Below, in pieces: positions 3,857 to 26,086 of a stretch of 64,000 bases of DNA. This stretch comes from Mesotaenium endlicherianum (lineage: Eukaryota). The stretch's first letter is position 1. Every line of letters starts with the position of its first letter. Made by a program: the position numbers and the translations under genes. The stretch is taken from contig WELA01001056.1 of the NCBI GenBank assembly GCA_009602735.1, positions 134,843 to 198,842 of the forward strand, in the 5' to 3' direction. Under the pieces are notes generated by a model that was not told the origin of the DNA, searched no databases, and worked only from the letters and a program-made list of their open reading frames with translations.

Positions 3857-4212
3857 ACTGGCGAAAAGAAAAGATTCCTTCAGCAAAAGATGCTATTGTG
3901 CTGAAAGGAAAAATCGAGGCTGACGCCTTACAGCTAGAGGACGCAAACAAATTCTGGTAAGTGCAGTGTGGCCCAGTGCAAATGATGAAGCACGGTGTGC
4001 GAACCCTCCCTAAGGGCGAGCGTAAAAATCGCTGCATTGTACTCGATTGTTGTCATGCTAGTTCCACCAAGTCCTAGGCGTCCTTGGGCGTCCTGGCCTT
4101 AATGAAGTGTCGTATATACGTGTAGCTCAGTGTATCAAAAAGCTCACAAGCTGATGTGGATAATGCCAGTTGTTCGTAGGCCAGGTCAGGCATCATATGA
4201 GTCAGACGACGT

Positions 4213-4452
4213 CGTGGGTTGGGAACTCCCCTCGAAAATCTGGGTAAAATAGCGCCCAGAATCCAAAAGATTAAAAATAGCGCCCTGAAATCAAAATCTC
4301 AGAATTTCAACAGGGAATCAGTGCCCTTTAATCAAATAAATATGTCGTATTAGCAACCTGAAATCAAACCTGGGAAAATTAGAGACAGGATTCAGAATTT
4401 TAGGGGCCTGAATTCAAAAATCTGGAAAATTAGCGCCAGTTTCCACCCCATG
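4213..4452 (+). mobile_element. hAT-type MITE (~240 bp), family 1, copy 1
   Basis: Ends CGTGGGTTGGGAACT...AGTTTCCACCCCATG. Perfect 8-bp TSD GACGACGT at 4205-4212 and 4453-4460. Homologous along its length to the reverse complement of 5793-6032. Confidence 0.85.
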
Positions 4453-5792: not shown

Positions 5793-6032
5793 CATGGGGG
5801 GGAAACTGGCCCTTTTTTTCTGAAATTTTGAATTCAGGTCTCTAAATTTTTGAATCCAGTCACTAATTTCTTCAAATTTGATTTCAGGTCGCTATTAGTT
5901 CTTATTGTTTTGATTAAAGTTAGCTAATTTACTCTATTAGATCTGGCATTTTCAATTTAGGGCGCTATTTTGAAACCTTGAATTTCTGGGCGCTATTTCA
6001 CCCGGATACTCGAAAGGAGTTTTCCCCCCATG
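5793..6032 (-). mobile_element. hAT-type MITE (~240 bp), family 1, copy 2 (inverted)
   Basis: TIRs CATGGGGGGGAAA...TTTCCCCCCATG. 8-bp TSD AAGTGGGG/AACTGGGG (1 mismatch). Confidence 0.85.
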
Positions 6033-6052
6033 AACTGGGGAGTCGGGAGTCC

Positions 6053-6080: not shown

Positions 6081-6814
6081 CGGTATCCCATATATTGGAT
6101 TTCATTGACTATGCACTTTCTAAAATATGTCGACTAGAAAGTAAAAACTGGTAGAAACCCCTCCATCAGGATGTTCCTTCATATTACGGGTTTTCTACAT
6201 TGCCACGTAGAATGAATAGTGAGCGCGTTGCGGCTCCACCTGTGACCATAATCTTCACTCTGCGTAGTTTCAAGCAGTTCCAAGCCTTTAACGTCTATGT
6301 TGGTCTATATTGATTGTCGCCTTGTGCATATCTTGTATCCGCTGGTTCCGATATAGACAATCGGACCAATCGAGACCGTCACTATTATTGTTCATTATAC
6401 ATGAGAGCACCTGTGCGCGCAAAACTTGCCGCGTGTGATGTGATCAGAATTTCACCATACGTCACCATACATAAAAAACATTGAGATGTTGCACATCGCC
6501 GTCGGCTGGTCACATCAAGTGCCAGCAGTGGTCAGCGCCTTGAAAGCTTGCCTTCAATCTTTCCGTTTATCCCTCAGCCTTCAGGGTCCCTATTTCCGAA
6601 CCGACTGCTACATCTTGCTCCTGACTCCTTTCCCTGCGCAAGCCCAAAGGCGCTCTTGGACTTGGGGGTCTGCACTGGGTGTCGCTTGTACTAAAGAGAG
6701 GGCCCTAGTGTTACCCTGATATTGTTATCGGAAGTGCGATTTCTCTTTCGATAGTCCTCCCCATTTCGCGTGCCTTCTCACCACCTTCACCACTGAGTTT
6801 TCTAAGCAGCAATT

Positions 6815-8268
6815 ATGGCCGCAGACCCAATGGCTCAAGTTAGACTGAAAAAGGTCCAAATCGTAGTCGGCAACAGACAATGTGCAGATTGCCCTTGTAA
6901 AAATGCACAGTGGGCGTCGGTGACCCATGGTATTTTCTTGTGCCTCGAGTGTTCGGGAGTCCACAGAAGCTTGGGCGTGCATGTGAGCTTCGTCCGTTCT
7001 GTGGGTATGGACTCATGGAGCGACAGCCAGATCCGAAGAATGGAGGTATGCAGTACTTCTGGCTTGCATCTTGCTGAAATTTTACACATGCTAATGCACG
7101 CTCCGCAGATGGTAGCTACATGTCGTCTCGTCCTTAGTTTGGTCCTCTCTACCATCCTGTTCGCAATGGCATTGCCCATTCTTTGCTTGTCACGACACGC
7201 GGATTACATTTGACCGGGAAATGCCTGGTCCAAAAAATAACACACATGCATACAGAAGCACTAAAGTTTGTGCAGGTTGGGGTTTTATTCCTTGGTCTTT
7301 AGAGTGCAATAGTATAGCTGATTATTTCGCTATTCTCATCGACATGATCTGCTTCTTGAAGAAGGCCACTCTGCGGGGGTGGTTGTGACCTTGGTTGAGT
7401 TCTCTATGGAAAGCATTTATTTTCTCATGGAGCACTTTTAGTAGTATGTTGGAATACAAGCCGGTGTACGGGTGTACTATAAGGTAAAATGGGGACCCCC
7501 AGAGCGTTAGGGTGTCTTACTTTGTGATCTTTCTGGTGGCAATGACTTGATGCGCAATCTGAGACTGCTTGCTTGCTTGTTTTTGCATCTATGGCAGCTT
7601 GGAGGAAATGCAGGTCTTACTGAGTTCCTGGATAGATACGGGGATGGTACGGAAATGGGGGCAAAGATACCTGTGAAGTACATCTCGAAAGCTGCAAAGC
7701 AGTACGTGGAGAAGCTCAATGCCCTTGTGGATGGCAGACCCTGGAAGGCGCCTCCGCTGCAAGTGAAGGTTAAACCTGTGGTAAGTTCTGCTGCGCCTGT
7801 CATATGCTTGTAGCCCCTGCAGGGTCATAGCTGATGGATATATGGTGGCGTGCGAAAACTGTACCTCTGAAGCAATACTTCTGTCCTGGACTTCTTCACT
7901 GGTGGATGTATTGTCGCAGCACGGCTCCTGGGGTTTACTCCTGCTTCAGCTGGTAGCATTTCCTTTTGCCAGGAAACGCTGAAGCACTCGTTGCCTCGGT
8001 GCTTTCAACTGGGCAGGGGAGTTTCTCGCCAATGCGTTCGACAAGAAAGTGGTGCGATGCCGCTTGCTGGGCCTAAGTGTTTTCATCTACTTTACTTTGG
8101 CAGGCGTCTGGTGGCTCCAACACTCGCCAGTTTGGTGGAGGTGCCAGAACATCCTGTGCTAGTAGTAGGGGCTTTTCCAGTGGGCCATCCCGCCACACAG
8201 CAACCCCAGCTAGCGAGAGCTGGGACGACTGGGGGGAAGGTTGGGGCACTGTAGCTGCAGGGTCGTGA
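6815..8268 (+). CDS. ADP-ribosylation factor GTPase-activating protein (ArfGAP1/AGD6-7-like); exons 6815-7045, 7598-7780, 8104-8268
   Basis: CADC...[30 protein letters not shown] zinc finger with the arginine finger. Phase-0 GT/AG junctions give ...RME-LGGNAGL... and a WDDW acidic tail. Confidence 0.9.
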
Positions 8269-9888
8269 GACACGTCCTCTCTCGGTGATCCGGCTGGGGC
8301 AGATAAGGGCCTCCATGAGCGCATGCTGCCTCGCCGATTGCCCTCCTGGATTGTGTCAATCTGAAGTGAAACTTTTGCCACGAACTTCATCAGGCCCGTC
8401 CTCGAGAGAGAGAGATGGCATTTGGAGAGGTGGTAAGGTTTGCAAACTTGTACAGTGCTGAAGAAGTTGAGCTTGACTGGCTGGGTTTTCCGTTACAGCG
8501 CGTCCAGGGAGGCAAGGGAGTACAGTAATCTGAGTGAAGCTGTCGGGCTTTAGGTAGGATCTCCGAGCTTCTTCCGTTAAGAATTATGTTGACCGGATGT
8601 ACACATAGGATGTAGTAACTACAAAATGTACCCAAACCCACCATTTTTTATTCTTTTGGAAGCATTCTTCCGTTATTTGTGTGTTGCCACCATCGAACCT
8701 TTTGCTTTGGCTCGTCGGTGGCTTTGAATGGAAGACTCTTGTTATCTGTTAAAATGTTTCCTTGATTCGAGATGGACTTTATGCTACAAGCTGCAAAGTC
8801 GACCAGCACTACTGTATGGTAGAGTCTTATCTGCTGTAAACTCATCTGGATGTGCTCAAGTAGGGGCCGTGCGATTGGTAAGTAGTGTAAACTTTAAGAC
8901 CTCTAGCACCACATGGAGGCTCAGTACCAAGTAAATTGTTGCCAGAGGAGTCATGCCACATTGCACGATAACAGTTGATCATATGGGAGGCATGTAATCA
9001 CAGATCGTGGTGTGGAACATTGGTTCTGGCCTAAGAAAGAGAGTAAGCCTTTAGGTTAGTTTCTGCACTACCTGAAAATAGGGTGTAAGTCTCTATTTTG
9101 GGGTGAGAAATGCATAGGACAATACAACCTGCCTCGTAGGTGCATGTGTGTGTGATAAGCCGCCATCTTAATTGCTGGGACCCACGGCAACATTGCACGT
9201 AGGGACTTGCGTGAGGGCATGAAGCCCAAAGCACATTGAAATGTGGCCAAGAAAATCCCCATTACCAAGGTATGATTCAACGTTATACTCAAAAACATAA
9301 CATGACAAAGGGGTTTCACCAGAAGGGGTGGATTGTGCTTGTTGCATTTATCACCTTGAAACCTGACATAACTATAGTTGATGAAGTACGACATATAGAC
9401 TCCTCGATTATGCGTTTGACGTTCGCATGAAGGTAATAGTAGTAAAAAGCAATAGTCACGGATTTTCATTTATTTGAGAATAAAACGGATCTGACCACTA
9501 GTTGCTACTTGCTGAATTTGTAGCGTCACTAGCATGGCCAACACTAAATTAGTATAACGTCTGACCAAATTTTTAATGCTGATGCTTTGGGTGGAGCTTG
9601 CAAAAATGACTAACGCCAATACGAAGCAAAAATGGCAATCTCGGCTGTATGCACATGACCCCAAGCCACCGAAAATGTTCGCAAGGCATACGCCCAGCTC
9701 ACCATGATTGACATGTTTTGAACGAGGATACAGTATCAAAAACAAGTTTGATGCCGAAGCGATTGGATGGTTAGTCAAAGTGAACTTGTGTAGGACAATC
9801 AGCGCGTCAGGCACAACCACTTAAATTCGTAACAAGACAGAGTTGATGATTTGCTAGATTCTATTAATGGAGTTGCCACGTAACGAAG

Positions 9889-10028
9889 TGTCGTGCATTA
9901 GGGGGTCGGGCGCGTCTGATCGATATAAGCAACACCCAAGTAGGCAAGCAAGACTTGATGTGGTGAAAGTGAAAATGCATGCGGCCTTATGGCCAAAAAG
10001 AAGGTCAGCAGTCAAATGTTTTAATTCA
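9889..10028. repeat. 140-bp TG...CA repeat, second copy of the putative LTR of element A
   Basis: Near-identical to 11032-11170; begins TGTCG and ends ATTCA. Confidence 0.8.
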
Positions 10029-11220
10029 AGGGGAGTGTACTCTCCAGAGTGAGCACCTCAAGACTGTAAACTAGTAGGAATACAACTAATGAAGTATGGC
10101 CCAAAAGATCACTGGAAGCACATCATGATCTTCAAGAGTAGTCCTATGGCGGGAGTTTAAGCTGTGACTTTGCACACCACTTGTAAAGTTCTTCAAGTGA
10201 CTGGAAGCCAGCAAGGCTTGCTCTTCACAAGAGAGAAACTAAGTGGTCCTGAAAACACAAGAGATAAAAGGGTAAGCTTTACTGTGACTTACAACTGGCA
10301 TAATGGGGACTTCTAAAAAGATGTCCTTCTAAGGGCATCTACTGCAAAATACTCCCGGCAAAACCGGCGCTGAAGGCGGCGGATTCAATGCACACAGTCA
10401 CACTAGGAGGCTCTCCTAGGTCCACGAAAGTGGAGGCAAGGCACGTACTAGCTCTCCTATTAGCTAAGCACAACACACACCAATCAAACATAGTGCAAGG
10501 AAGAGGATGCATGATTCTCATTGGCGGAGCTTACCTCAACCAATGTCACCTAGATAATGCCTCAGAATGTAGATCTGAAACGTGAGGAAGCTTCCTCTAG
10601 GAATGAGTGATGCAGTCACCAAGTTATAGCTCAAATGATGCTCATATACTATGCTAATGCATGCTAAGTGTACTTTATCAAGCTCGCGGATTTGTACGTT
10701 AATGGCTACAGATCCTTGGAGTTGCGAAGAGCCAACGGAGTGACCTTTGGGCACATTGAATCACAAAGTGGCCTTTGGTGAAAATCCGCTAGGGGCCGGT
10801 AGGTGGCGCGAACTAGATCGCGAATATCTCGCTCGACACTTCACCAAATGGCACGCAACCGATGCCGTTCGGAAGGTGACGCAACGCTCTACACTTGAGC
10901 GATTTGGAATGCTAGCATAGGTCAACATATGGATGCGTGAAGCAAGGTCAAAGTCGGCCCTCCTAGGTCGATGGTCAACGCACGTGTGTCTCGGCTTGGG
11001 CGACGGTCCCGACCTAATGAGTCATGACAGCTGTCGTGCATTAGGGGTCGGGCGCGTCTGATCGATATAAGCAACACCCAAGTGGGCAAGCAAGACTTGC
11101 TGTGGTGAAAGCGAAAATGCATGCGGCCTTATGGCCAAAAAGAAAGTCAGCTGTCAAATATTTTAATTCTCCCCCCAGCTCTCAGCCTCCAGCTGATGAG
11201 CTGAGACTGCTATCGCTAGC

Positions 11221-11370
11221 TTACTCAGAGCAGTCACTACAAAACCAGTCTCTTGGGGGAACGCGCTTCAGTGGGGGGTCGAGGCAGCCCATGTGGAAGC
11301 CAAGGTTGCAGCTGTCGAAGAGCAGCATCTTGGCCTCCTTGCCAGGGCTGTGTCAGATCTGGCACGCCCA
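11221..11370 (-). pseudogene. PHD finger at the integrase C-terminus of element A
   Basis: WACQI*HSPGKEAKMLLFDSCNLGFHMGCLDPPLKRVPPRDWFCSDCSE-stop has C4HC3 spacing, with one Cys changed to TGA and one to Phe. Confidence 0.88.
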
Positions 11371-12500
11371 GTCCTCGGGCGGCCGTGCATTGCGAGGACG
11401 AACCTGCACATCAAGGTAAGGAAGGTGGCATGGACCACAGTTCTTCGTGTGATCCTTGTGAAGACGGCCATCTGTGCCTTCTAGCTCCAGTACTCCTGAC
11501 GCCAAGGCTCGCTTGACGCACAGGATGACCGGCGAGCTGCTGGTGTCGAGGGTGTTCTTCGTCTGGCGTCGTAGGTACACGAAGTCATTTGCGGAAAATT
11601 GCAACACCCGAGGACGATAGGCTGCTCCACAGGTCATGGCATACCTCAGCGTGTCGCGGTGCTGAGCGATATTGAGGTTGTCCATGGCCATGGGCATCAG
11701 GCGCTGGAACAGCTGTGCACGCTGCCCGATAAGAGCACTTCATGTCTCAAGACTGTCCAAGTCCAGGACACTCGCAGCTACAAATCTGCGGCTGGGGATC
11801 GGCTGGCGTCCATAGAGGAGAAAGTAGGGAGAATGCGAGGCCAAGGATGCCTGGCGACTGAGCCTGTATCCCATAACCAGCCACGAGAGTGCGTCGTTCC
11901 AGTGGGTGCTGTCGTGGGTCAGGCAATACTTGCGCAGGTCCAGCTTACGGTCTGCACCATGCGCTCTGCAAGGCCGTCAGCCTGGGGGTGATCGCGGGAG
12001 GTGGTGCAGTGGTCAATCATGGAGCGCTCCAGCAGCTTCCGAAAGCTGCTTTGGAACTCCTTGCCCTGGTCGGTCAGCACCTCAGCGCAGCCGCCAAAAC
12101 GGCTAAGGACCTGATCAAGGAACGCCTGGGCGATCCCCTCACTGGCCTTGCTCTGCAAAGGCACGAGCTCGATCCACTTGGACAAGTGCTCGATCATCAC
12201 CAAGACGTAGAGGTTGCCTCGGCGGGACTTGGGTAACTCCCCAGCAAAGTCTAATGACCACTTGTAAAACAGCCCCTAAATAGGAAGGGGACTGAGGGCA
12301 ACGGTGTGTGCTGTGAAGCTCGAGCGCACACGGTCGCAGAGAGTGCAGCTGCTGACGACGTTGGCCACAACCTTAGCCATGCCGTGCCACCAATACTTAG
12401 CCTGGAAAAGGCTAAGAGTGCGCTTGACACCAAAGTGTCCAAGGGCCTCGTGCACTGTGCGCACCCGTTGACTGCGTATAGCGAGCTCAGGTACTACCAG
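11371..12500 (-). pseudogene. Integrase of element A (fragmented)
   Basis: HEALGHFGVKRT...CTLC zinc-binding motif; LTDQGKEF and HPQADGLAER core motifs. Confidence 0.9.
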
Positions 12501-12838
12501 GACGGAGCCGTCGGCCATCATGCGCCGCAGCCGTCCCTCCATGAAGATGAAGTCCTGGCTGCGCTTGAGGACGCCCTCGCGCTTTCTCGCATCCACGCCT
12601 GGCGCCAACTTCTTAGCGGCGACGTACTGCAGGAACGCAGCGTCATCCCACACGTCCTTGAGCCCACGCTGCCAATTGTCGTAATCTGCTGTTGCAGCCA
12701 ATGCCAGACGCCTTGTGTTAACCACCACCAAGTCGCGATCAGTGAGCCTTGCTCGCCGTGCATCGCTGTCCACTGTGAAGGCCAAAAGGGCTGCTGCATG
12801 CCAGGCCACGGGCTCGTCCTCGTCGTGGCGGGCCACGG

Positions 12839-14100
12839 TCAGGTCCCTAGAGGAGGGCAGGGGGTTGCGGCTGAGGCCGTTGGCGTCCATGGTAATCGAG
12901 CCCGGAGATGGTGCACGTCGAACGTGTACTCCTGCAGAATGAGTGCCCATCGCGCGTACTTGCCTGTGAGGCGCTCCGACGTCATGAGCCACTTGAGCGG
13001 CTGATGGTCGGTGACGAGGCGAAAGTGGGTGCCGTAGATGGCCCAGAGTGCTGTCAGGCACTCCCCCTCGTAAGAGTCGTAGTTGGCCTCGGCGCGGTTG
13101 TTGCTGCGATTGGCGTACGCCACCACGTGCTCGAAGCCGTCGTGCTCCTGCTCCAGCACTGCTCCCAGCCCTGCCTGCAACCAGTCGGTGTGGAGGATGA
13201 AGGGCTTGGTATGGTCGGGCCGCCGCAGCACTGGGGCGCTCACCAGCAGCTCCTTGAGCTTATCGAACGGCGCCTGCTGCTTTGCTCCCCATATGTAGGC
13301 CACCCCCTTCCGCAGCAAATCGTTGAGTGGCTTAGCGAGCTCGCTGAAGCCAGGCACAAAGCGGCGGTAGTAGTTGGCGATCTCCAGGAAGGCCCTCAGC
13401 TGCAAGATGTCGGTAGGCGGCGGGATGCCTGTGATGGCCGAGATCTTGGCCAGCTGCGAGGCCAAGCCACTGCAGGAGAGGAGATGCCCGAGGTACTCCA
13501 CCTTTTGGGTCCCAAAGGTGCACTTGCCTGGATGGCACTTGAGCCCAACGGCCTCCAAGCGGTCCAGGACGGCAGTAATGTGCGTCACTTGCTCCTCGAG
13601 CGTCTCACTGAAGACAAGCACGTCATTGATGTAGCACCGGGCAAGGGATAGCCTTGCCAGCTCCTTATCCATGACTCGCTGAAAGGTGGCTGGAGCGTTC
13701 TTCAGCCCGAAGGGCATAACCCTCCGCTCATAGAGGCGCTGTGCCCCCCAAAACGCCGTCTTGTGCTGGTCCTCCTCCGCAATAGATATTTGGTTGAAGC
13801 CTTCCCTTAAGTCCAGCACCGAGAACCAAGTGCACGTGCCAATGTCATCAAAGATCTTGTCAAGGGTAGGCATAGGATATCTGTCCTGCTTAGTGACCTC
13901 GTTTAGCTTACGATAGTCACTGCTCATTCTCTTCTCAGACCAGTTGCCTGAGGCATCCTTCTTTGCCGGCATGACCGTGGGGGCCGCGTAGGTAGAGGAG
14001 GACTCTCGAATAAGCTGGTTGTCCTCCAGCTTGCCTGTCTGCGTCTTGATCAGGCCGTCCTCGAAATGACTGTAGCGCCCTAAGTCGTGCATGCCGCGGG
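12839..14100 (-). pseudogene. Reverse transcriptase and RNase H of element A
   Basis: DYRKLN...YPMP, MPFGLKNAPATFQR, YINDVL (degenerate YxDD), LHTDW...GLGAVL, TDHQPLKWL. Confidence 0.92.
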
Positions 14101-14659
14101 CAAAGCAGGCGCTGCGTTGAGCATCGAGCATCTTTATCAGCTGCGCTGCCTTCTCCACGATAAGGGTCCTCCCCAGCTTCCAAGCGGGGGCCGCTGGGGG
14201 AGGAGCTTGCTCTGCACCTGTCGCCTGCTGAGCGGCTGCAAAATCCTGCCCCCCTGCCGGCGTCACCTGTCTGCTGGCGGAGAATGTCTGCCCTGCGCCT
14301 GCTGCTGGCACCCGTCTTGCGGCTGCCAGTTGATCTGTGGGAGCCGCCTGCGGGCGTGCAGGAGCAGGAGGAAAATAAAGGGAGAACGGTGCAGCTCCCT
14401 GGGCCGCTGTGCCTCCTCCCTCCTCCGTTCCCCCCCCAGCGGGCCAGAGTCGGAGCTGGATGCGAGAGGCGCCTGGTACGGGCGCCAAAGGGGTGCGTGT
14501 CGTGCGGGCCCCTCGCGCTGAGACAGCCAGCGGGTGCCTGGCGTAGGGTGGGTGCCATCGTCATCGGAGGAGCTGTCGTCTGGCTCGTCCAGACGACAAG
14601 GCAGCTCTGGATGAAGGGCCTCGGCGTAGAGAGGTGTCAAGGTCTGCGTCTGCAATAGA

Positions 14660-15605
14660 AGCCACGTCAAGACGTTGGCATCGATGGCCTGCCCCAAAGG
14701 CCCAATGCGGTTGACGTTGGTGAGGCCATGCACCTGGGTCAGGTGCAGTGGGAAGGTCATGGCGCGCTCCATCTCCACGGGACGCGGGCGCTCGTACAGG
14801 CCGGAGGAGAGGTCAATGACCATGCCGCGGGCCACACCGTCATAGGCTGCACTGTCGTAGCGACTGACGAATATTGGCAGGGCGCGTGTGACATTGCGGA
14901 TCACCTCACACTGGGCCTGCGACGGATGGGGCATAGCGGTCACGCGTCGGGCCAGCCGCTTGGCGTCGAGGATAGAGTCATCGTTGCGGTCGTGGTGAGG
15001 GTGTGCGGCTGCTAGAGCCTCGGGCGTGCCTGGCATAGCCAGGTTGGTGAAGTAAGCTCGCACGCGGTGGGCGAAGGAACCAACTTGCGCGTCGTCGATG
15101 ACGATCTCGCAACCGAGGTAGCTGCTGAAGAGCTCGAAGTTGGCGCGGACACTGTCTCGCTTGTCGTCAAGCACCGCAACATTCTCCAGGATCCATGCGA
15201 GGGAGTGGGCGGACTGGCGTGCCTCAACTAGGTTGAGGACGCGGCGGAGGTGCCAGAAAAGCGCTGTGCGAGGGTCGCTGAGGACGCCGCCGCGGCCTGC
15301 AATTGAGAACCCCTGGCACTCCCAGCCAACGATAATGAGGTCCACCGAATCGAGGCAAGTCACGTGTTTGTCGGTGACGTTGCGGACGTCCATGGGCCAG
15401 TCGGTCTGCGCGTGGCAAAAAGCGCGAGCGAGAAAGAGGTCGGGGAAGCGCTCGTGGCACAACGCCATTTGGCATCGGGTGACCTGCTGCGCCTCGGGGT
15501 TCGGGTCAACGTAGACGTATCGACGGACGGGGATGCCGGCCTGCAGCGTGGCTAGCAGCCCGGTGGCGATGCCAGCAAACAGCTTCACCAAGACAATGCC
15601 GTCGG
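14660..15605 (-). pseudogene. C5 cytosine DNA methyltransferase domain inside element A
   Basis: Ordered motifs in one open frame (14263..15660): I LFAGIATG, IV DLIIVGWECQGFS, VI ILENV, VIII AHRVRAYFTN, IX EMERAMTFP, X LGQAIDANV. Confidence 0.9.
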
Positions 15606-17524
15606 GCCGCTCGTCCAGCTGGTCCGTGTAAATGGGCGTCGGTAGCGGATGGCAGCCCATAGCAGGATCACCGAGCTAGGCGATGGGCGGATATGTACGA
15701 GTCTTGCTGTGCTGATGCAGAGCCATGCGGAGCGCGGGGACAGCGTGCTTGGCGTAGTCGCGCGTGAGGCGCGGAATGGGCCCAGGCAGAGGCTGGGGCT
15801 GTGTGGGCTTGGTACTATCGCCACGTGTCGCGGGCGTCCTGCAGGATGTGAGGGGGCACATGTGTCGAGCGGGCCTGAGCCTGGCGCAGGCATGTGAGCT
15901 GCCACTTGCGCCTGGCCTTGCGATCCTGCACATGGGAAGCTGCTTATGCAAGCTGGTCTAGCATCGAGCATCGTGGAAGGTACGGGTGCGGGTCGTAGTA
16001 GGCCTATTGGCGCCGGTAGAAAGGGAGGTTCACCGGGTTGGGGCTGCCGGCACGCCCGGTGCGATAGGCGAATTGCCAAACGGGCACTGGTTGGCGGGGC
16101 GCCAGCTGCACTTGAGCACGGAGCTTCGTGTGGAGCGGCAGCTGGTCGTAGGGACGCCTGTGGCGGCGGGCCAGGTCGTCGACGGCTGCAGAACGTCGGC
16201 CGGTCCTGGAATCGAAGGCAAGGCTGCCAGTGCGGGCCACCTTGGAGCGAGGTGAGCCGCCAAGCCCGTCGATGGCAGCGTGGCTGCGAGGGAGCACTGG
16301 CCGCCGATTGTAGAGCGCGTGGGAGGCATACATGGTGGATTGCGGGGCGTCCTCGCGATTGTCCACTTCGCGGTACGGCGGGGTGGCTGCACGGGCACGG
16401 TTGTCGTGGTAGGGCGGAGTGGTGGCTCTATCTCAGGTTTTGCGATAGGGCAGCGTGACAGATCGACCGCGTCTCGGCGTGGGTGTGAGGCTGCGCTCGC
16501 TTTGCAGACTTCGCCTAAGCTGCGACGGGTGACAGCTCGTAGCCTGCCGCGCAAGCCGCCTCCCGGCTTTGGACGGATGACCAAGCGTACAACTGGCACG
16601 GCGGTCATCGCTGCGCCGAGTGCGTTGGCCACTGCGCAGGCTGCGCTGGCGCTTGTGCCGGAGGTGGCAAAGGTACCAGCGGACAAGGCGCGGAAGCCGG
16701 ACCAGTCATCTCTGGCACCTCTGCCGTAGAGCATATGCGTGAGGTCGCGGCAGCTGGCGTTGGTCGAGCAGTCATGCTTGGGTCGGCAACGTGGGCCTGC
16801 CGCAAAGCGGTAAGCTTCGCCGGACGTGGCGGACGCAAGCCGGCTGAACCCTGGCGCACCAACAGAGGAAGGGCAGCCGAACCCCGGAGGACCAGCAAGC
16901 CTGTCGAAGCCTGGGGGCCGTGTCAGCGTGCTGAAGCCTGGGGGACCGGTGGGCATGCGGCGGACGCGAGCGGCGGGCGTGATGGGCATGGCCCGCGAGG
17001 GTGCCTCGGTCGGCTCCTTGAAGGATTCCTCCGGCGCCCTCTCGTACGACTCCTTGTCTGTCAGGGGGTCGTAGGCGGCCTGGCGCATAGCCTCCTCTTC
17101 CAAGGCGGACGTGCGGCGGTTGGTATTGGCCGTGTGCATCGATGGCAAAGATGGCTGGGACGCCATCTGAAACTGCATGGCCACTCCCACCGGCACCTCC
17201 TGTCGTAGGCGGACGTCAGACCGCGTGGCGGGTGAGCGCACCCTCTCGCGCAAGGGCGCCACAGGATTGAATGGACGGACCGAGCTGGCCGTGGCTACGA
17301 GGAGCTCGTGGTCTCTAGCGGCCGTAGCCACTGCTGCTGTAGCGGCGTCGGCAGCGGCGGTAGCTGCCGCTTTCATCTGGCGCATCACGGCGTGCTGAAC
17401 CGCGTAAATGCGCACAAACACACGGGCCTGCGCTGTTAGTAGCTCCGCCTGGTCCTGTGGAGAGAGGTGGAGCTCTGCGCTCGGTAGCTCAAGCTCCTCA
17501 TCCTGGGGCTGGAGCAGGTCCGCC

Positions 17525-18045
17525 TGAAATGAATCGACTTATCAAATAGGCGATTAACAATTAATAAAGATCTTTATATCAGCAAGTAATCTTTATGGTA
17601 TTTTCCGTTAACTGGTTAAACGGCAAATGACAACATACTAGCAGTGAATAATACTCGTAAGTCAAATGCGAGTAAACTAGCATCAATGATGCAAATCAAT
17701 AAACTCATACATAAGCAAGGTTAGAAGACAGTGCGTATCAATGGCTTCTCGCCTTGGATTCAGATTTCTCTCAGTAAGCTGTACAAAAGAGTTGGCCTTG
17801 TTTCCGAATGCCGAACTCGCGAGCAATGCCTAGCATATGTACATGGAATGAGTTTACTGTTCAACGGTCAGTGCGATGGCACCGCCTACCCGGGAGTTAA
17901 CCACGTTGGTAGGACCTCGGTTAACCAAATCCACCGCCATCTCCCATCATCCCGAATAGCCATCCATCATAGGGATGTCATCTGGCCATTCATCTAGCAT
18001 ATCGTGCTCAGGTGTATGTCAAGGCAGTTCACTGCTACCGAGTAC
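17525..18045 (-). repeat. 3' LTR of B copy 1, lacking its first ~200 bp and the PPT
   Basis: Matches 25363-25883 and 57649-58167, then similarity stops at GAGTAC. Confidence 0.92.
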
Positions 18046-18124
18046 TATTATATTGCGAAGTCTCAAATAAAAGAAACTGACCCTGCCCAGCCTCCCCTAC
18101 TGACTGTCTTTTCAGCCTGTCACT

Positions 18125-19795
18125 TTAAGGGGTTGTTCCTGGGGCTTCAGGATCAGAAGACGAAGATCGGGACCTAGATCTGGACAGCCCTCTAGGTCTG
18201 TCAGCTGGCCTTCTAAAGAACCCTGTTTGTTCTAAAGTTGGACCTCGAGGAGAACGAAGGATGGTAGCCTGCTCTTCAACCACTTGGGTGTTGATTCCCA
18301 CATAGACAGGCATTCCAGTAGGATGCTGAAATACATTGGCTAGAGGTACATGCCCCTGAGCGGAGGGGGAGGCTGGCATACCTCTGGCCCACCCGCGTGT
18401 CCCTCTTCTGGCACCCCTGTCCTCTGGGGATTTCTGCCTGTGTCTGCTGCCCAATACAGTCAGATTAGCTTCTTCCCCTGCTTGGGCAGGTGGGCTGGGG
18501 GAGCGAGCGCGGGGTCCAGTTGTCGCCATCACGGAGATCACATTCCAAACACCTGATCGTGGTTCTTTAGGAAGCGCCCCTACCTGTCCCTGGGTATCCT
18601 GAGTACCTGATGCTTCTCCTCTGCCCTGTTCTTCTTCCTCATCCTCCTCATCCTCCTCCTCGGAGAGAGTAGGGGTCTCGTCCACTAAGTCGTCCTGCTC
18701 CCTAGTAGACATGGAGTAGTCTACCGACCTCCCTTTCTTAGGGCGCGCTGGAGGTTGCTTGGCCTTCAGCCTGCTGATATCTATCCGGCCTGCATTCATT
18801 GCCCATTTGACAAAGGCATGCTTTCCCTTAGAGAAGTAGTCTCTGCCCCTCCTCCTATGCTCCTTGGTCTCTGCATTCATATTGCTCAGGCATCCATTCA
18901 GCCTGGGGTCCCAAGGGGCAATGTGAGGTGGTAGGATGAGATAGCCGTCTAGGCCATAGTGGAAGTCATCCGGTTGGGCTCGGTCACACTCCTGCTTCTT
19001 ATTTGTGACGGTCATCCACCTCCAGTCTGTTGGCTGCTGGTAGTACTGGGGTCCGTGCTCAGCCTTCCTCAGTTTACACGGGAACCAGTGGGGAGAGAAC
19101 ATCTGCTGTCCTGCTTCCCTGGCCAAGTACTCCCAGCTCCTTCTCTCAACTTCATTGTAAGCTGGCAGTAGTGTGAGGTAGAATACCGTATCCTTAAAGC
19201 TATCGGGCCGCATGCTCACCATCCGGATGAGTCTCTGATCTCCCACTATTCCCGGTATGGGGACCGGCTTGTCCTCTGAATCATCTGCGAGATACCGGGC
19301 CTGCTCTGCTGTATAGCCCACCATCTTAGCATAATCTTCGTAAAGGACCACGCCGGTGTGTGTCTCGATGTACCTGTCCAGTGCTGTAGCTCCTTCCTTC
19401 TGTAGCAGTGTTGTCTGTTCCAGCCTGTTGATCTCCTGGGCTGCCAGCAATGCTTCCTTCAGGTTATCGAAGTTTTGGCCACCCACCACAGTATACCTGT
19501 AAGTGGCCAAGCTCTTCTGTCTGTCCGCTTCAATCTTTTTTCTTTTCTCCTCTTCTGCCGCTGCCGCTTCTTCTTGCTGTTTCTTCTGTCTCTCCTCCTC
19601 AGCCTTCCTGAGGTTTTCCGCTTCCTGATCCTTCTTCCTCTGTGCCTCTTCTGCCGCCTCTTGTTGCTTGCGGACCCTTTCTTGTTCTCTCCTGGTGAGG
19701 GACGTCGCCGCCAGCTCCTTCTGGTATTGCTCCATTGTCCTCCTGGCTTCTTCTGCCTTGCGCTTTCTGTCCTCCTTTTGTGTGGTGGGCGCCAT
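18125..19795 (-). CDS. Extra ORF of element B (~556 aa, unknown function)
   Basis: Intact ORF in the same sense as gag-pol; likely start ATG at 19795 (MAPTTQ). K/E/R coiled-coil N-terminus, aromatic-rich central region, acidic stretch and RS-rich tail. Near-identical intact copy at 58480-60156. Confidence 0.8.
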   Translation of the reverse strand: MAPTTQKEDRKRKAEEARRTMEQYQKELAATSLTRREQERVRKQQEAAEEAQRKKDQEAENLRKAEEERQKKQQEEAAAAEEEKRKKIEADRQKSLATYRYTVVGGQNFDNLKEALLAAQEINRLEQTTLLQKEGATALDRYIETHTGVVLYEDYAKMVGYTAEQARYLADDSEDKPVPIPGIVGDQRLIRMVSMRPDSFKDTVFYLTLLPAYNEVERRSWEYLAREAGQQMFSPHWFPCKLRKAEHGPQYYQQPTDWRWMTVTNKKQECDRAQPDDFHYGLDGYLILPPHIAPWDPRLNGCLSNMNAETKEHRRRGRDYFSKGKHAFVKWAMNAGRIDISRLKAKQPPARPKKGRSVDYSMSTREQDDLVDETPTLSEEEDEEDEEEEQGRGEASGTQDTQGQVGALPKEPRSGVWNVISVMATTGPRARSPSPPAQAGEEANLTVLGSRHRQKSPEDRGARRGTRGWARGMPASPSAQGHVPLANVFQHPTGMPVYVGINTQVVEEQATILRSPRGPTLEQTGFFRRPADRPRGLSRSRSRSSSSDPEAPGTTP

Positions 19796-20062
19796 CCTGC
19801 ACATGTAACCAGGGCACAAGTTAGTAGGATATGGACCTTTGTCATAGGGATTGCAGGAAGTATGTTAGTATTTAGTATAGTGGCTTCGCTGCTGTTTACC
19901 TTACAGGATGATTGCTAAAAGTTGACGTAGTTGCGATGCGCTACACATAAACGTATGAGTGTGTTTTTATCGCTCTCGCTCACTAACTGTCATATATTTT
20001 CCCCTCCAACTTAAATGGAGACAGGACCGCCTGTCACCTTCCCGTGTCAACTGAAATGACAG

Positions 20063-23000
20063 TTATGGAGGGACTCCAGCGGCCCGAAGGTGGAACCGTG
20101 TCAACGCCCCTTTGGCATTGGTCAAGTGGTCCTTAAACTCCCAAGTGTCCCCAGAGGCATCGTAACCCTTCCATCGAATGAGGCATTTCATGACATATTT
20201 AGACGATCGACGGACCGAGCGAGCGTCTAAAATCTCATCGTCCTCATATTCCTCAGGGTCGCCGTCTCGGACAGCGGGGACCGGTCTCGGTTGGACAGGT
20301 AACCGACCTGTGAACAGTGTATCACCTTTGATGTACGGTTCCAGGTAGGAGACATTAAAGACGGGGTGNGGTGACCCTTGTAGTCTGCTGACATGTTTAG
20401 TTTGTAAGCATTCTGACCGACACGACGGACCACCGAATATGGACCGACCCAGTCTGGGCCAAGCTTTTTCTTGACCACACCAGGGAGGTACGGGTGCTGA
20501 GAATGCAGTTTAACTAAATCCCCCTTGGAAAATGTCAGTTCCCGACGGTGTTGATTAGCGTATTTTTGTTGGTTTTCTTGGGCCTTGTGCAGGTTTCGTT
20601 GGACTTCTGACAGGGTGTCAGCAAACTCCTGAGTTAACTGGAGGGAGACCGGGTTGTCAATCCCTTCAGGGTGAGTTAAAGATTCCCCTAGCACATCTAG
20701 AGGAGACTTAGGGACTCTACCCAGGCTGAGTTCAAAAGGAGTTTTGCCCGTTGACGCGTGCACCGCACTGTTGACCGCAAACTGAATTTGAGGCAACAGG
20801 TCATCCCAATTATCTTGTTTTTGGTTAATATATGCTCTCAGCACCTCCTGCAGAACTCGGTTAGTTCTTTCAGTCTGCCCATCAGTCTGAGGGTGGTTTG
20901 CTGTGCTGAGCAGCTGTTTGACTCCCATTAACCCCATTAAAGCTCTCCAGAACTTAGAGGTGAATTTTGAGTCTCTGTCTGAGATGATATTAGAAGGGAG
21001 CCCATGTTGGCATACTACATGGTTGTAAAACTGTCTCGCTGTTTCGAGTGCAGTCACTTTGACAGTTGTGGGGATAAAAATGACCATTTTTGTCAGTTTA
21101 TCCACGACTACCAGTATTGAATCATGCCCGTTGGCAGTTCTTGGTAGTGAGACCACCCAGTCCATGGATATGGTTTCCCAGCGTCCAACTGGGATGGGCA
21201 GCGGTTGTAAGAGCCCTCCGGGTGGTGTGTGCCGAGACTTATTTCTCTGACACTGGTCACAGGACTTGACGTATTTCAAGACCTCCCGGGGTAACCCCTC
21301 CCAATGATAATGTTTTGCCAGTTTGCCAACAGTTTTGGCCTGCCCCAAATGTCCACCCAGGAGACTGTCATGAGCTTGACTCAGTAAGAGAGACCTTATT
21401 TCCAAATTATCAAGAATAACCAGCTTCAGCCTGCCTGAAGTGGTTTCAGTCACCCAGACCCCTCCCTTGAGCTTATACCCGAGTGCGGTAGCACGACACA
21501 TACTAGTAGTGGGGCTGGGCTCAAATGTTGGGTCAGAAAGGTAGGCTTTCCTAAGTTGTTCAAGGAAGGACTTTTTCACCTTTAGTGAAGTGAGTGCACA
21601 CAGGACTTTATCTACAGTATGCTGACTAAAGTTCCTTTCTTGCAAGTCAGGTCTTCTAGAGAGTGCATCAGCAGGATTCAACTTCCCTGGTTTGTAGTCG
21701 ATCTGGACTTGGAACTGCTCCAGCATCTGGCTCCAGCGGTTCTCCCTCCTCGACAGCTTGGACTTCTTCTGAAAGTGGGTCAGAGCTAGATGATCTGTAA
21801 TCACCTTAAAAGCTTTACCATGTAAGTATGCTCTCCACTGTTTGAGTACATGAATGATAGCTAGCAGCTCTTTATCATGCACTGAGTAATTAATCTCCGC
21901 TGGATTAAATTTCATAGACTCATACAACACAGGATGCCACTCCTGCCGTACCTTACCATCCTTTGTGGTTTTGTCAGCAGGCTGCAACAAAATAGCACCC
22001 ATGGCAAAGTCAGAGGCATCAGTAACCACCTGCACCGGTTTGCTGGGGTCATACACGGCTAGCACTGGGGCAAAACAAAGGGCAGCTTTAAGGGTCTGGA
22101 AGGCAGCCTGCTGCTCTTCCCTCCACACATACCCTATGTCTTTCTTAGTAAGTTCAGTCAGTTTACTGGCCTTTGTGGAATACTTCTCAATGAATCTCCT
22201 ATAGTAGTTAGCCAACCCGAGGAATGATCTAACTTCAGAGACAGACTGTGGTACTGGCCAGTCTCTTATGGTCTGGACTTTCTTATGATCCACACTGATG
22301 CCCTCTTTACTGACAACGTGGCCTAAGAACTCAATACTTTCCTTAAAGAAATCACACTTGCTCATTTTAGCATATAAGTGATTTTTCCGCAGAGTGTCCA
22401 GGACTGTCTTTAAGTGTTCAGTGTGCTGAGCTTCATCTTTGGAGAAAATTAAATATCATCCAGGAAAACTTGCACAAACTTATCCAAATAAGGTCTGAAA
22501 ATGTCATTCATAGCACCCATGAAGGTAGCAGGAGCATTAGTCAGTCCAAATGGCATCACGTTGAACTCATAGTGTCCATAACGTGTGCGGAAGGCAGTCT
22601 TGTGTTCATCCCCTTCAGCAATTCTGATTTGATGATAACCACTCTTGAGATCTATCTTACTGAACACCTTAGCGCCAGACAGGGTATCAAGCAAGTCCTC
22701 GATTCTAGGTAAGGCATACTTGTTCTTTATCGTAATTATGTTCAGAGCTCTGTAATCTACACACATCCGCATACTGCCATCCTTTTTCTTAACGAATAGG
22801 ATGGGTGCGCCGTAAGGTGATTTACTGGGAGAAATATAACCATTTTCCTCAAGCTCTGCAATCTGTGTTTTCAACTCCTCGCTCTCCACATAAGACAAGC
22901 CATACGTGCGTTGCCAAGGTGGCTGACTCCCCGGTAATAGATCAATCTTATGATCTACTTCCCTCTTAGGGGGTAGTCCTGGAGGCATTTTAAATACATC

Positions 23001-23875
23001 CGTGTACTGAGCAACAATTTTTGCAGCAGTAGGGTGCTCCGGAGGGCTTACCTTTTTCTCAACCACTTCTTCAGGTTGAGGAGGTACCTCTCTTAGCAGC
23101 AGACAGAACATTCTGTCCTCCTTCTGGTTCCAGCTTTTGACGAACTCCATTGCATTCAGCAACTTGCATCCTTCTGGAAGCCTCTTCTTTTCCTTCATTT
23201 GCCATCCACACAGGACAAGAGGAAGAGCACTGGTGGGTGCCAAGTCAGTCTGCCCATCACTGGCTCCTCTCACTTTAACTGTACCTCTGCTCCAACACAC
23301 TTCAGCTTGATGTCTATTAAGCCAGGACCTGCCTAGCACGAGATCATAAAAGCCAGTGTTGAGTACCTCAATGTAAGCGATTCAGTTAGAACTGCAATGC
23401 CAGAACCTAATTGGACCTCAATAGGCTTGGTTATAGCTCCTCCCGGGATACTTGAGGCATCTTCAAGGAATATTTTTCTATTCCCTTGGGTGACAGTAGG
23501 CAGCCTTAGCCGCTTAACTAAGTCCTTGTGGATAAAAGTATGTGACGCCCCTCCGTCAACAAATGCCCTCACCTTCCTACCTGCAATCATGCAATGCAGT
23601 AGGATAGGGGGGACTGTCTTTTCCTGACTTTCGCATTGTTCTCCTGACGTAGCAAAGAAATGTTGGACATCAGGTGGAACAAGAGCATCGAGAGTGTGCA
23701 CTCTCTGGATGTCCATATTGCTGATGGTCTCCTTTATCTGGTTGTCAGGCATGCATAGTAAATCCAGTTCAGCAGGACCCATAATACCTGCTACGAGGGT
23801 AGCTAGTGACGACTCACTATCTCTAGCATCCTCACAGTCAGTAGACTGGATTACTGACTGTTGCTGTCTTTTAAA
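20063..23875 (-). pseudogene. pol of B copy 1 (PR-RT-RH-INT-chromodomain), frameshifted
   Basis: FVDGGA protease, FLDD RT, TDASD RNase H, H2C2 and SDRD integrase, RWKGY chromodomain. Frameshifts near 23370 and 22450 relative to copy 3, plus an N at ~20369. Confidence 0.93.
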
Positions 23876-25329
23876 GGCTGGTTTTTTCTCTTGACCTTGG
23901 GCAGGTGCTTGACCGGACACTGTTCCCTGTAGTTGCTTTTCTGCTGGCAATGGTAGCAAGTAGATTTTGCTGAGGCTGGTCTCGGCTTAGTCCTACCGCC
24001 ACCCCTTCCACAGCCACCTCGAGAGGAACCACCTCTACCTCTAGACTGAATAGAATTGTACTCGTACTCATATTCATTACCCCGATTATCCTCAGCCTGG
24101 TCTCCTTCAATTGCATTGTAGGAACCGTGGGGCTTTTTGACAATCTTAGACACCAAAGCATTACTCTGGCGCTTGTGATTGAACTGCTGCTGATCCCAGG
24201 CGTCAGCATCCTGGATCAAGTCAGCCAGTTTCTCATACTTTTTCTCAGCAAAATGACCAGAGACCTCGGATTTCAAGCCATACCTGAAGTATGCTATCCT
24301 ATACCGTTCTGGCAAATCTGGCTGCTTCATCATGTTCTCTTGGAACTTTTGAGCAAACTCAGCAACTGAAGTGGTCTGCTTCAGTGTCAGGGAGATCATC
24401 GCATAGATAGCTTTCTCCTGCTGGTTGATGACATCAAACTTCTCATGCAACTTCTCGACAAACTCTACCCACGTAGGGTCACCGAGTTGCCGAGCCTTAC
24501 GCTCTTCCTTCCAGTAAAGCCACCAGTCTGCGGCACTGCCTTTCAGTAGCGCACCGGTGTGCCTGACCTTCTCGTAATCTTGCAGTTCTGGGTAGTTCTC
24601 CAGCCACTGCTCAACATCCGCGAGAAACTTGATCAGGTAATATTTTCTGTTTCCCTCAGGATCATAGTCCTGGGGAGGTTTCGGCTTGGGCTTACTAGGC
24701 CCTCGGCCACCACCACTAGTGGTGTGAGACCCCAGTTGGTCTCTGTCCCGGAGTAGGGACATTATGATTCTTTTGTCCTCCTGCTGGGACTGATACATGG
24801 TCGCCATTTGCGATTGCATCTGAACGAATAATGCCCCCAAGTCTACACTTTGGGGTGGTAGATTAGCAAATGCAGCAGCAGCATTGGCATCTACTCGCTG
24901 AGTAGTGTCCTCAACAATCCCTCTCGCTCCTGCAGCAGCAATTCCTGCCGCATTCAGCCGGTCACGTATTTGACCTAGGGGTACATTGAGTTGTACAGCA
25001 GGAGGTGGGTTCAGAACATTGGCCCTTGATGCCATAAGTTCTTCAACAGTGCGCTCGTCAGCTGGCTGTCCTTCCCTCCTTTCTGTATTCTCAGCGGCCT
25101 TTGCTACTTGTTCAGCCACTAATTTGGCTCTCTCCTCCTCAGCTTGCTGTGCTGCGACTGCGGCTATAGCAGCTGCCTCATCTGCAGCCTCTCTAGCTGC
25201 AGTATCTGCCACTGCTTCGGAATAGGTACGGGTTCCCGCTACATGGCTTTCCGCCTGGTTTTCGACATTCTCGTTATCCTGGTTCTCCATGTCTCGGGAG
25301 TTGCTAGTTTGAGACCTTGTCCTTACCAT
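23851..25329 (-). CDS. gag of B copy 1
   Basis: ATG at 25329 just after the PBS. LKGSAADWW and LKQTTSVAEF..F retrotransposon-gag motifs; degenerate CYHCQQKSNYREQC zinc knuckle. Confidence 0.9.
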   Translation of the reverse strand: MVRTRSQTSNSRDMENQDNENVENQAESHVAGTRTYSEAVADTAAREAADEAAAIAAVAAQQAEEERAKLVAEQVAKAAENTERREGQPADERTVEELMASRANVLNPPPAVQLNVPLGQIRDRLNAAGIAAAGARGIVEDTTQRVDANAAAAFANLPPQSVDLGALFVQMQSQMATMYQSQQEDKRIIMSLLRDRDQLGSHTTSGGGRGPSKPKPKPPQDYDPEGNRKYYLIKFLADVEQWLENYPELQDYEKVRHTGALLKGSAADWWLYWKEERKARQLGDPTWVEFVEKLHEKFDVINQQEKAIYAMISLTLKQTTSVAEFAQKFQENMMKQPDLPERYRIAYFRYGLKSEVSGHFAEKKYEKLADLIQDADAWDQQQFNHKRQSNALVSKIVKKPHGSYNAIEGDQAEDNRGNEYEYEYNSIQSRGRGGSSRGGCGRGGGRTKPRPASAKSTCYHCQQKSNYREQCPVKHLPKVKRKNQPLKDSNSQ

Positions 25330-25349
25330 ACAAAGAAGATTGTGATACT

Positions 25350-25361
25350 GCTCCGATACCA
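25350..25361 (-). promoter_or_regulatory. Primer binding site (tRNA-iMet type) of element B
   Basis: TGGTATCGGAGC, 1 nt after the LTR-terminal CA; 1 mismatch to the canonical TGGTATCAGAGC. Confidence 0.88.
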
Positions 25362-25362
25362 C

Positions 25363-26083
25363 TGAAATGATTTGACTTATCAAATAAGCGATTAACAAGT
25401 AATAAAGATCTTTATATCAGCAAGTAATCTTTATGGTATTTTTCGTTAACTGGTTAAACGGCAAAGGACAACATACTAGCAGTGAATAATACTCGTAAGT
25501 CAAATGCGAGTAAACTAGCATCAATGATGCAAATCAGTAAACTCATACATAAACAAGGTTAGAAGACAGTGCGTATCAATGGCTTCTCGCCTTGGATTCA
25601 GATTTCTCTCAGTAAGCTGCACCAGAGAGTTGGCCTCGTTTCCAAATGCCGAACTCGAGAGCAATGCCTAGCATATGTACATGGAATGAGTTTATTGCTC
25701 AACGATCAGTGCGATGGCACCGCCTACCCGGGAGTTAACCACGTTGGTAGGACCTCGGTTAACCAAATCCACCGCCATCTCCCATCATCCCGAATAGCCA
25801 TCCATCATAGGGATGTCATTTGGCCATTCATCTAGCATATCGTGCTCAGGTGTATTTCAAGGCAGTTCACTGCTACCGAGTACGCAAGTCAGCTGGCTGT
25901 CAAACAATGGGTCAGCAAGCTGACTTATATGGACTTCAGCCTGCTGCTTCCGGCTGAGTCATTAAATTGATATTAAACATAAAGTCCAACAGACTGATTA
26001 TTAACTAGAGTTCAGCAGGCTGAACTTATATAACTGTTATATTTAAATGAATATTATATCCACTAATATACTGATTCATTACA
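25363..26083 (-). repeat. 5' LTR of B copy 1 (721 bp, TG...CA)
   Basis: TG/CA termini; homologous to 57649-58366. Confidence 0.95.
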
Positions 26084-26086
26084 GTG

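Follow-up and report, generated by a model that had tools for sequence, protein, structure and literature searches.

The stretch of Mesotaenium endlicherianum DNA analysed here, called the window below, comprises 64,000 nucleotides (nt) of contig WELA01001056.1 (assembly GCA_009602735.1, positions 134,843 to 198,842 of the forward strand). It harbours, on the minus strand, a dead, 5'-truncated Ty3/Gypsy retrotransposon, the pol region of which encodes a cytosine-5 DNA methyltransferase (DNMT) domain that is DNMT3-like by sequence and predicted fold, followed behind the integrase by a PHD finger. The element terminates in a polypurine tract (PPT) and two segments, A and B, arranged as B-A-B, and this end structure is more unusual than the pairing of DNMT with PHD. 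Judging from the arrangement of these sequences, we consider it rather probable that Gypsy elements of the green lineage with DNMT3 and PHD domains would acquire their A...PPT-B-A-B ends from end-joined DNA that is cut at an internal palindrome.

Layout of the element and its terminal repeats

The features are listed in the 5' to 3' direction of the element.

16030..17523, minus strand: upstream GC-rich open reading frame (ORF) at the gag position, unrecognised, without a Pfam, protease hidden Markov model (HMM) or Atlas match
14263..15675, minus strand: ORF with the DNMT3-like C5 methyltransferase domain (about 14650-15600; PF00145)
12926..13939, minus strand: reverse transcriptase (RT) and RNase H (PF00078, PF17917, PF17919), RT motif YIND
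11368..12476, minus strand: integrase (H2C2 zinc finger, DDE core, C-terminal region; PF17921, PF00665), with stops and a frame switch
11230..11364, minus strand: PHD finger, broken (PF00628, alignment with 104 relatives, PDB matches)
11167..11176, minus strand: PPT, GGGGGGAGAA, the sole sense-strand purine run of at least 9 nt in 9889-11400
11032..11169, minus strand: B1, between the PPT and the palindrome, a repeat of B2
11026..11035, no strand: palindrome GACAGCTGTC at the B1/A2 junction (CA-GC-TG), occurring once in the window; predicted integrase cut site
10028..11029, minus strand: A2, the U3-R-U5-like main body of the terminal repeat, which begins TGTCATG
10309..10322, minus strand: predicted self-primer (putative 5' end of the RNA), complement of the sequence after A in other copies
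9889..10027, minus strand: B2, the terminal copy of B (95% identity to 11032-11169); the element ends ...GCACGACA, an att-like CA end

Read along the minus strand, the unrecognised ORF is thus followed by the methyltransferase ORF, RT-RNase H, integrase and PHD, and the pol order RT-RNase H-integrase is that of Ty3/Gypsy. Scanning of the window ORFs with Pfam matched RVT_1, RT_RNaseH, Integrase_H2C2 and rve, placing RT and RNase H in 12839-14560 and integrase in 11919-13259. The ORFs so scanned gave no match to a tyrosine recombinase, a DDE integrase being present instead, and no chromodomain was found at the integrase C-terminus, where PHD occupies that place. Upstream in the window copy, neither gag nor protease was found by Pfam, a custom protease HMM, relaxed tblastn or Atlas; both were detected in the relatives P0044, P0081, P0133 and L147. 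The DNMT and RT frames differ in the window copy, and neither of the two slippery-like heptamers between them is in the canonical register for a -1 frameshift. The decay noticed in an earlier reading of the letters alone (the sequence-only reading) is borne out: the RT motif is YIND, the frame switches near 12906 and 11946, there are in-frame stops, and the PHD finger has broken zinc ligands. The 5' end was removed at 17524 by another long terminal repeat (LTR) element. The other limit is 9889, since repeat depth drops to single copy to the left of B2; the sequence-only reading had confined the element to 11032..15660, about 1.1 kb short of this end.

The same reading had the element finish in a PPT followed by an LTR. 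The PPT stands, being the purine run at 11167-11176, but the plain LTR gives way to PPT-B1-A-B2. A B segment of 138 nt at 11032-11169 is repeated at 9889-10027 with 95% identity, and between the two copies lies a 1.0-kb segment starting with TG. The order at this end is PPT, B1, two bases, A (starting TG) and B2 (ending CA), and the start of A and the end of B form an imperfect inverted repeat. The canonical LTR layout of identical LTRs, a PPT beside the 3' LTR and a primer site beside the 5' LTR end is absent. The direct A/B join at 10028/10027 holds neither PPT nor primer site, and such joins differ by 1-2 nt among copies, like end-joined junctions. The split repeat is DIRS-like: its 3' half, B-A-B, is seen in the window, and a 5' A is deduced from loose contig ends and from L147.

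Six relative contigs (L147-L152) came from a scan of prokaryote genome bins. These six, together with those of the proteins P0428 and P0434, are eukaryote-type retrotransposon contigs lying in bins of Synechococcales, Mollicutes, Halorubrum, Halanaerobiaceae and Bosea, and their placement there is likely contamination. The palindrome found at the B1/A junction of the window also follows PHD in four of the six (L147-L150), the other two contigs ending earlier, and was present in only 1 of 146 control loci (1.1 Mb). In all five elements (window, L147-L150) the last G-run lies 57-140 nt ahead of the palindrome; the PPT therefore never adjoins TG. L149, which has the palindrome, belongs to the other main branch of the clade (type B, below), and hence the end trait is old and the layout spans the clade. 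L148 shows a whole B1-A-B2, with B1 at 2311-2416 and B2 at 2779-2884 (106 nt, 100% identical), and a 684-nt contig from another copy in the same sample as the window reads internal-B-A. That B1 might be a one-off nested fragment is ruled out by this contig, by L148 and by the palindrome in relatives. The palindrome sites are at 11020-11041 in the window, L147:7047-7063, L149:4605-4625 and L150:2779-2799. In the relatives CACG stands to either side of the palindrome, and in the window the A side has CATG. All five elements have a CpG beside the palindrome, so the predicted cut site lies between methylatable CpGs.

A putative primer site directly after A was recognised from complementarity. Fourteen contigs (run X1) part from the window where A ends on its 3' side (10028) and continue into non-B sequence, of which the 14 letters beside A are fully complementary to 10309-10322 within A (14/14); among 100 shuffles, 3 gave a match over the 64 kb when one mismatch was allowed. 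Other copies have a TATA-like sequence about 25 nt upstream of the 10309-10322 site. In L147, a perfect 13-nt complement of an A-internal sequence starts at 7415, the position at which B2 starts in the 87%-identical L148. Of the inverted repeats in the 1.6 kb beyond the palindrome, this pair has the greatest length (13 nt was attained by 3 of 100 shuffles), and a TATA-like word stands about 30 nt before its first arm. The 14-mer of the window is homologous to the L147 pair, with compensating changes. These pairings point to a self-priming site directly after A in L147 and, by inference, in other Mesotaenium copies. The complement layout matches that of Tf1-type self-priming, and self-primed reverse transcription without transfer RNA (tRNA) is known for Tf1/Sushi and Tcn1 (PMC6317226).

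The methyltransferase domain, the PHD finger and their pairing

As the sequence-only reading had proposed, a C5 methyltransferase stands just upstream of RT and a PHD finger after the integrase, and Pfam HMMs run on the translations matched both above cut-off. The ORF at 14263-15675 matches PF00145 with 30.1 bits (E 4e-7, cut-off 22), and the motifs can be read in order: I LFAGIATG, IV GWECQ with the catalytic Cys, VI ENV, VIII AHRVR, IX ERAMTFP and X LGQAID. Its best solved-structure matches are DNMT3A/3B whether a single sequence, a profile or the predicted fold (predicted local distance difference test score, pLDDT, 83) is compared, and on this basis we class it as DNMT3-like. At 14 well-conserved columns, one of them that of the acidic residue preceding motif I, the window domain has a residue other than the majority one; it retains the catalytic Cys, ENV and Arg. 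The observed/expected CpG ratio of the DNMT domain (14590-15675) is 1.05 and that of its pol 0.75, compared with 0.33 and 0.55 in the two neighbouring Gypsy elements (26264-28819). A scan of metagenomes with the DNMT alignment (3 of 64 parts) gave 80 loci, and tblastn found RT, RNase H or integrase at none of them. Among scans of viral contigs, three gave no loci and a fourth gave 66, of which the best 4 (L081-L084) carried neither DNMT nor PHD. P0003, a protein that does not look like Gypsy, joins a related DNMT domain to a PCIF1-like one; this DNMT may therefore also ride in another element class.

The domain could be a passenger, either catalytically idle or serving the host through DNA binding or damping of transposition. 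In favour of this, the corresponding domain of KnitGypsy-Dnmt3 from the alga Klebsormidium nitens (K. nitens) gave no methylation in yeast, a result called inconclusive by its authors (PMC5890265); motif IV reads ECQ rather than PCQ in 51 of 92 rows; and DNMT has been lost from some members. Against it, the catalytic Cys, the Glu of ENV and the Arg are invariant in all 34 aligned rows, and purifying selection on DNMT has been reported for the K. nitens copies (PMC5890265). On balance we regard a passenger role as unlikely. Methylation of complementary DNA (cDNA) inside the particle was proposed for DIRS-DNMT3 in 2018, and by analogy the present enzyme would most plausibly act in that way, separately from PHD.

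The PHD finger at 11230-11364 matches PF00628 with 34.6 bits (E 1.9e-8, cut-off 24) when stops are read as X; the window copy has a stop at the second zinc ligand and Phe at the third. PHD fingers that read histone H3 trimethylated at lysine 4 (H3K4me3; ING/BPTF type) carry a cage Trp two residues before the zinc-binding His. At this position the 105 PHD rows have G in 97, A in 6, P in 1 and W in 1, and the window finger likewise lacks the cage Trp of that type. The rows were chosen with a profile built on the zinc ligands, which makes conservation of the ligands circular. The nearest solved fingers are those of KMT2D, KAT6A, UHRF1, PHF21A and AIRE, which prefer H3 unmethylated at K4 (H3K4me0). 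Because 104 of 105 rows have no cage Trp and because these are its nearest fingers, the PHD likely reads H3K4me0. Such a preference agrees with the intergenic insertion bias of the PHD-bearing Gypsy-7a_cRei (10.1101/2022.06.16.496473).

Pairing of the two domains is common and is the norm in the clade. Among the best 150 of 1,403 DNMT relatives at E up to 0.001, which were surveyed for domains, 49 have DNMT, integrase and PHD and 15 more have integrase with no detected PHD. Among the 120 RT relatives listed, DNMT and PHD occur together in 21 (local profiles, one of them weak), and Pfam found both in 7 of 20 chosen proteins. Two orders recur. In type A (window, P0044, P0056, L147) it is protease-DNMT-RT-RH-IN-PHD (RH, RNase H; IN, integrase), Closterium P0060 and Marchantia P0046/P0077 being of this type with no detected PHD. 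In type B (Haematococcus P0053 and many further rows) it is RT-RH-DNMT-IN-PHD; in P0080, P0093, P0002 and P0096 of type B, either a G-patch lies between DNMT and integrase or a weak, below-cut-off match to PF02086 (adenine-methyltransferase-like) follows PHD. DNMT appeared to be missing from many RT-first proteins of about 1,040 aa, and L147, whose RT is near-identical to one of them, has DNMT in an upstream ORF. The gag-protease-DNMT ORF of L147 ends in TAG followed in frame by CAA TCA (L147:3489-3497, one locus only). Stop-CARYYA is a read-through signal (PMC5397192), and the L147 sequence fits it, which at this one locus would put DNMT at Gag levels.

The sequence-only reading had allowed that copies of this RT family lacking DNMT would point to a chance insertion. 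Such elements exist, since L151/L152 keep PHD and have truly lost DNMT, yet a chance insertion is rejected: relatives from several hosts have DNMT in the same position, the DNA sample itself contains a second DNMT-bearing copy with 86% identity, and the distances for DNMT rise with those for RT (Spearman 0.72 over 76 rows, 0 of 999 permutations as high, a value inflated by near-copies and by the type A/B split). Its further suggestion of a writer coupled to a reader is not supported. A coupled PHD-DNMT, methylating an insertion site chosen by its histone mark in the manner of the ADD and catalytic domains of DNMT3A, would suit the presence of PHD in 49 of the 64 integrase-bearing rows above and the combination of a DNMT3-like enzyme with a cage-less PHD. 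It is nevertheless improbable. The coupling is unsupported because each domain is missing in some relatives: PHD alone is present in L151/L152, and P0060, P0081 and P0133 have DNMT with PHD not detected. The place of DNMT differs between the two branches, ahead of RT in the first and between RNase H and integrase in the second, and in L147 the two domains are in ORFs split by a stop. Protease cleavage would, besides, normally separate the domains of a polyprotein. We adopt no coupled reader-writer because the domains were gained, moved and lost separately.

Clade, copies and neighbouring features

In trees restricted to Gypsy-type rows, the window RT/RNase H groups with Gypsy elements. The RT and RNase H tree of 56 chosen rows has one clade of 45 rows (Shimodaira-Hasegawa-like approximate likelihood ratio test, SH-aLRT, 99), of which type B is a subclade (99). 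The window falls in a weaker group of 27 rows (89) with rows from Coleochaete, Klebsormidium, Closterium and Marchantia. A FastTree tree of 163 rows agrees, with clade support of only 0.66. The clade takes in sequences of Closterium, Marchantia, Klebsormidium and Haematococcus, and within it lie the K. nitens RT proteins P0030 and P0075, neither of which includes a DNMT; they are at most candidate proteins of the named K. nitens element. Of the RT and DNMT phylogenies envisaged in the sequence-only reading, that of DNMT is weakly resolved (type B group 0.46), and no order of events is claimed. The element branches apart from the chromodomain element of the same window.

Contig depth in run X1, which is not copy number and was taken at an 85% identity cut-off, was 55 in the single-copy flank, 7.8-32 thousand from RT to PHD, 0.6-2.0 thousand in DNMT and 0.2-0.6 thousand further upstream. 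Depth over DNMT is about one tenth of that over RT and integrase, so the majority of similar copies must be without this DNMT or too diverged for the 85% cut-off. Of the RNA reads from two runs (about 6 of 100 parts of one and about 24 of the other), none lay on DNMT and those on the element carried other letters; the same reads covered the neighbouring host gene.

That gene, at 6806-8640 on the plus strand, encodes an ArfGAP (PF01412) and is covered by stranded RNA reads. A second host gene, at 37966-41644 on the plus strand, encodes a cation efflux protein of MTP11 type (PF01545). An exon of the host at a distance of 22 kb matches, with 100% identity, a EukProt gene model whose prefix, jgi/Mesen1, is that of the zygnematophyte alga M. 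endlicherianum. A chromodomain Gypsy family with LTRs of about 720 nt occupies 17524-29309 and 57646-64000. Between pol and the 3' LTR it has an extra 579-aa ORF (18125-19864, again at 58480-60225) with no Pfam match above cut-off, which a tandem derivative at 26084-29309 does not carry; the LTR bins of this family reach about 20,000 times single-copy depth. A third Gypsy pol at 55406-57673 on the plus strand (protease-RT-RNase H by eye) stops at the LTR of the chromodomain element, 57646. Inverted repeats of about 240 nt, 74% complementary and 1.3 kb apart, lie at 4212-4452 and 5793-6033 and are possibly an old DNA transposon. At 34891-35408, two copies of a 250-nt unit, 75% alike, lie in AT-rich surroundings.

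A proposed replication cycle and its meaning

The cycle that we propose would begin with an RNA starting inside A, the first 13-14 nt of which, by their complementarity, would pair just after the 5' A and prime the minus strand without tRNA, as in Tf1. The plus strand would be primed at the G-rich PPT. With the minus strand starting after A and the plus strand after the PPT, ordinary reverse transcription would then yield a linear DNA with B-gc-A at both ends. Ligation of these ends, probably into a two-LTR circle, would produce the direct A/B join that is observed at 10028/10027. Both strands of the CA-GC-TG in the 5' repeat would then be opened by integrase, each behind its CA, and the cut ends would insert as exactly A-internal-B-A-B. 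The staggered cut would leave 5' overhangs of 2 nt, as long as those of the retroviral integration intermediate (PMC11054761). Foamy virus integrase, which has been reported to cut palindromic LTR-LTR junctions, provides a precedent (PMC1180852). The PHD finger on the integrase tail is predicted to bind H3 unmethylated at K4 and so to bias insertion away from active promoters, and DNMT, likely packaged in the particle, would methylate the new DNA separately from PHD. The wider picture, of an old green-algal and bryophyte clade that integrates through an end-joined intermediate at CA-GC-TG, is self-primed and PHD-steered, and in some branches methylates its DNA before insertion with DNMT3 made at Gag levels, has in our estimate an even chance of being right.

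Several observations weigh against this cycle. The priming site of the window was taken from a loose-end row with agreement of 0.61-0.63, the L147 site ranks only 44 of 1050 by pairing energy, the L149 pair has 12 nt (20 of 100 shuffles reach at least 12), and L150 shows no self-priming pair. B-A-B is seen directly only in the window and L148, and L147, L149 and L150 are probably collapsed assemblies. The data hold no circle, cleavage or transcript start and no target-site duplication, and the 5' end is lost. For DNMT there are the depth over most similar copies, the yeast result and a domain that, at the ratio given above, is not CpG-depleted. Finally, for retroviruses the route through a two-LTR circle was put to the test and, in the late 1980s, rejected (PMC11054761).

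The ends might instead be joined head to tail as concatemers, or by integrase, and not within a single circle, the palindrome still being the cut site. All the sequence features fit any route that brings the end of A to the start of B; however, nothing in the data favours this one, the window has no tandem copy, and in retroviruses such junctions are known to come from end joining within one molecule, so we hold it to be rather unlikely. Equally doubtful is an ordinary LTR consisting of A+B, in which B1 is an internal template copy of the LTR end for rebuilding and linear DNA is integrated: A+B2 (11029 to 9889) does look like a TG...CA LTR with inverted ends, and linear integration is the rule for DDE integrases (PMC11054761), but the priming site adjoins A and not B, the PPT precedes B and not TG in 5 of 5 elements, and under standard reverse transcription those two primers give B-A ends, not A-B.

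PAT/Ngaro are tyrosine-recombinase elements, for which a circular intermediate has been proposed. They have the same A...B-A-B split direct repeats as the window (PMC5890265 review file), but use a tyrosine recombinase, whereas the window element has a DDE integrase and TG...CA ends. The foamy virus cut site is made by end joining (PMC1180852), while that of the window is encoded internally and the joined ends stay in the insert. Tf1/Sushi and Tcn1 chromoviruses share the tRNA-free self-priming and differ in having a chromodomain and ordinary LTRs (PMC6317226).

With respect to domains, a Dnmt-bearing Gypsy in a charophyte alga was already known, as the sequence-only reading had stated: KnitGypsy-Dnmt3 of K. 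nitens, described in 2018, has a Dnmt3-type domain in a streptophyte-alga Gypsy pol (PMC5890265), and the window element likewise has an intronless DNMT3-related domain in its pol region. The legend of Fig. 4c of that paper has the repeats arranged as in DIRS and the domains as in Gypsy, a split layout like that of the window (PMC5890265). Most likely the window element is of the KnitGypsy-Dnmt3 kind, one that works like Gypsy and departs from the canonical LTR layout. The window RT is only 48-52% identical to the K. nitens RT proteins in the clade, and so represents a different family and host. The main text on KnitGypsy-Dnmt3 has 0 mentions of 'PHD' (PMC5890265), and the sections compared give no repeat mechanism; the two are set apart here by their descriptions. 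EpiLTRs are LTR retrotransposons that, like the window element, combine a cytosine DNMT with a chromatin reader, but they have a chromodomain, an added adenine methyltransferase and a DNMT4-related enzyme (10.64898/2026.05.21.726589), none of which the window element has. Their authors describe them as distinct from the streptophyte Gypsy-DNMT3 (10.64898/2026.05.21.726589).

PHD fingers in algal Gypsy elements are also already in print. Gypsy-7a_cRei of Chlamydomonas reinhardtii has a PHD finger and an intergenic insertion bias, and, compared by description only, no DNMT among its listed domains; its left LTR ends without the final 8 bp that the right one has, and these could represent a very short B (10.1101/2022.06.16.496473). 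REM1 of the same species is cited as another algal Gypsy with PHD. A literature search with subscription papers and supplements outside its scope returned no description of DNMT3 and PHD in one Gypsy element, nor of internal-site integration in this clade.

The joint occurrence of DNMT and PHD extends Gypsy-DNMT3 from one alga to a broad clade in which PHD is the usual partner. If the proposed cycle is true, LTR finders that expect identical TG...CA repeats would miss or mis-call such elements, since what recombination between the two copies of A would leave behind is a solo LTR of normal appearance. The moving, PHD-bearing Chlamydomonas element with unequal LTRs may serve as a ready model (10.1101/2022.06.16.496473). 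If the cycle holds, the circle-junction model that was dropped for retroviruses would be realised in nature, as the normal route of this clade.

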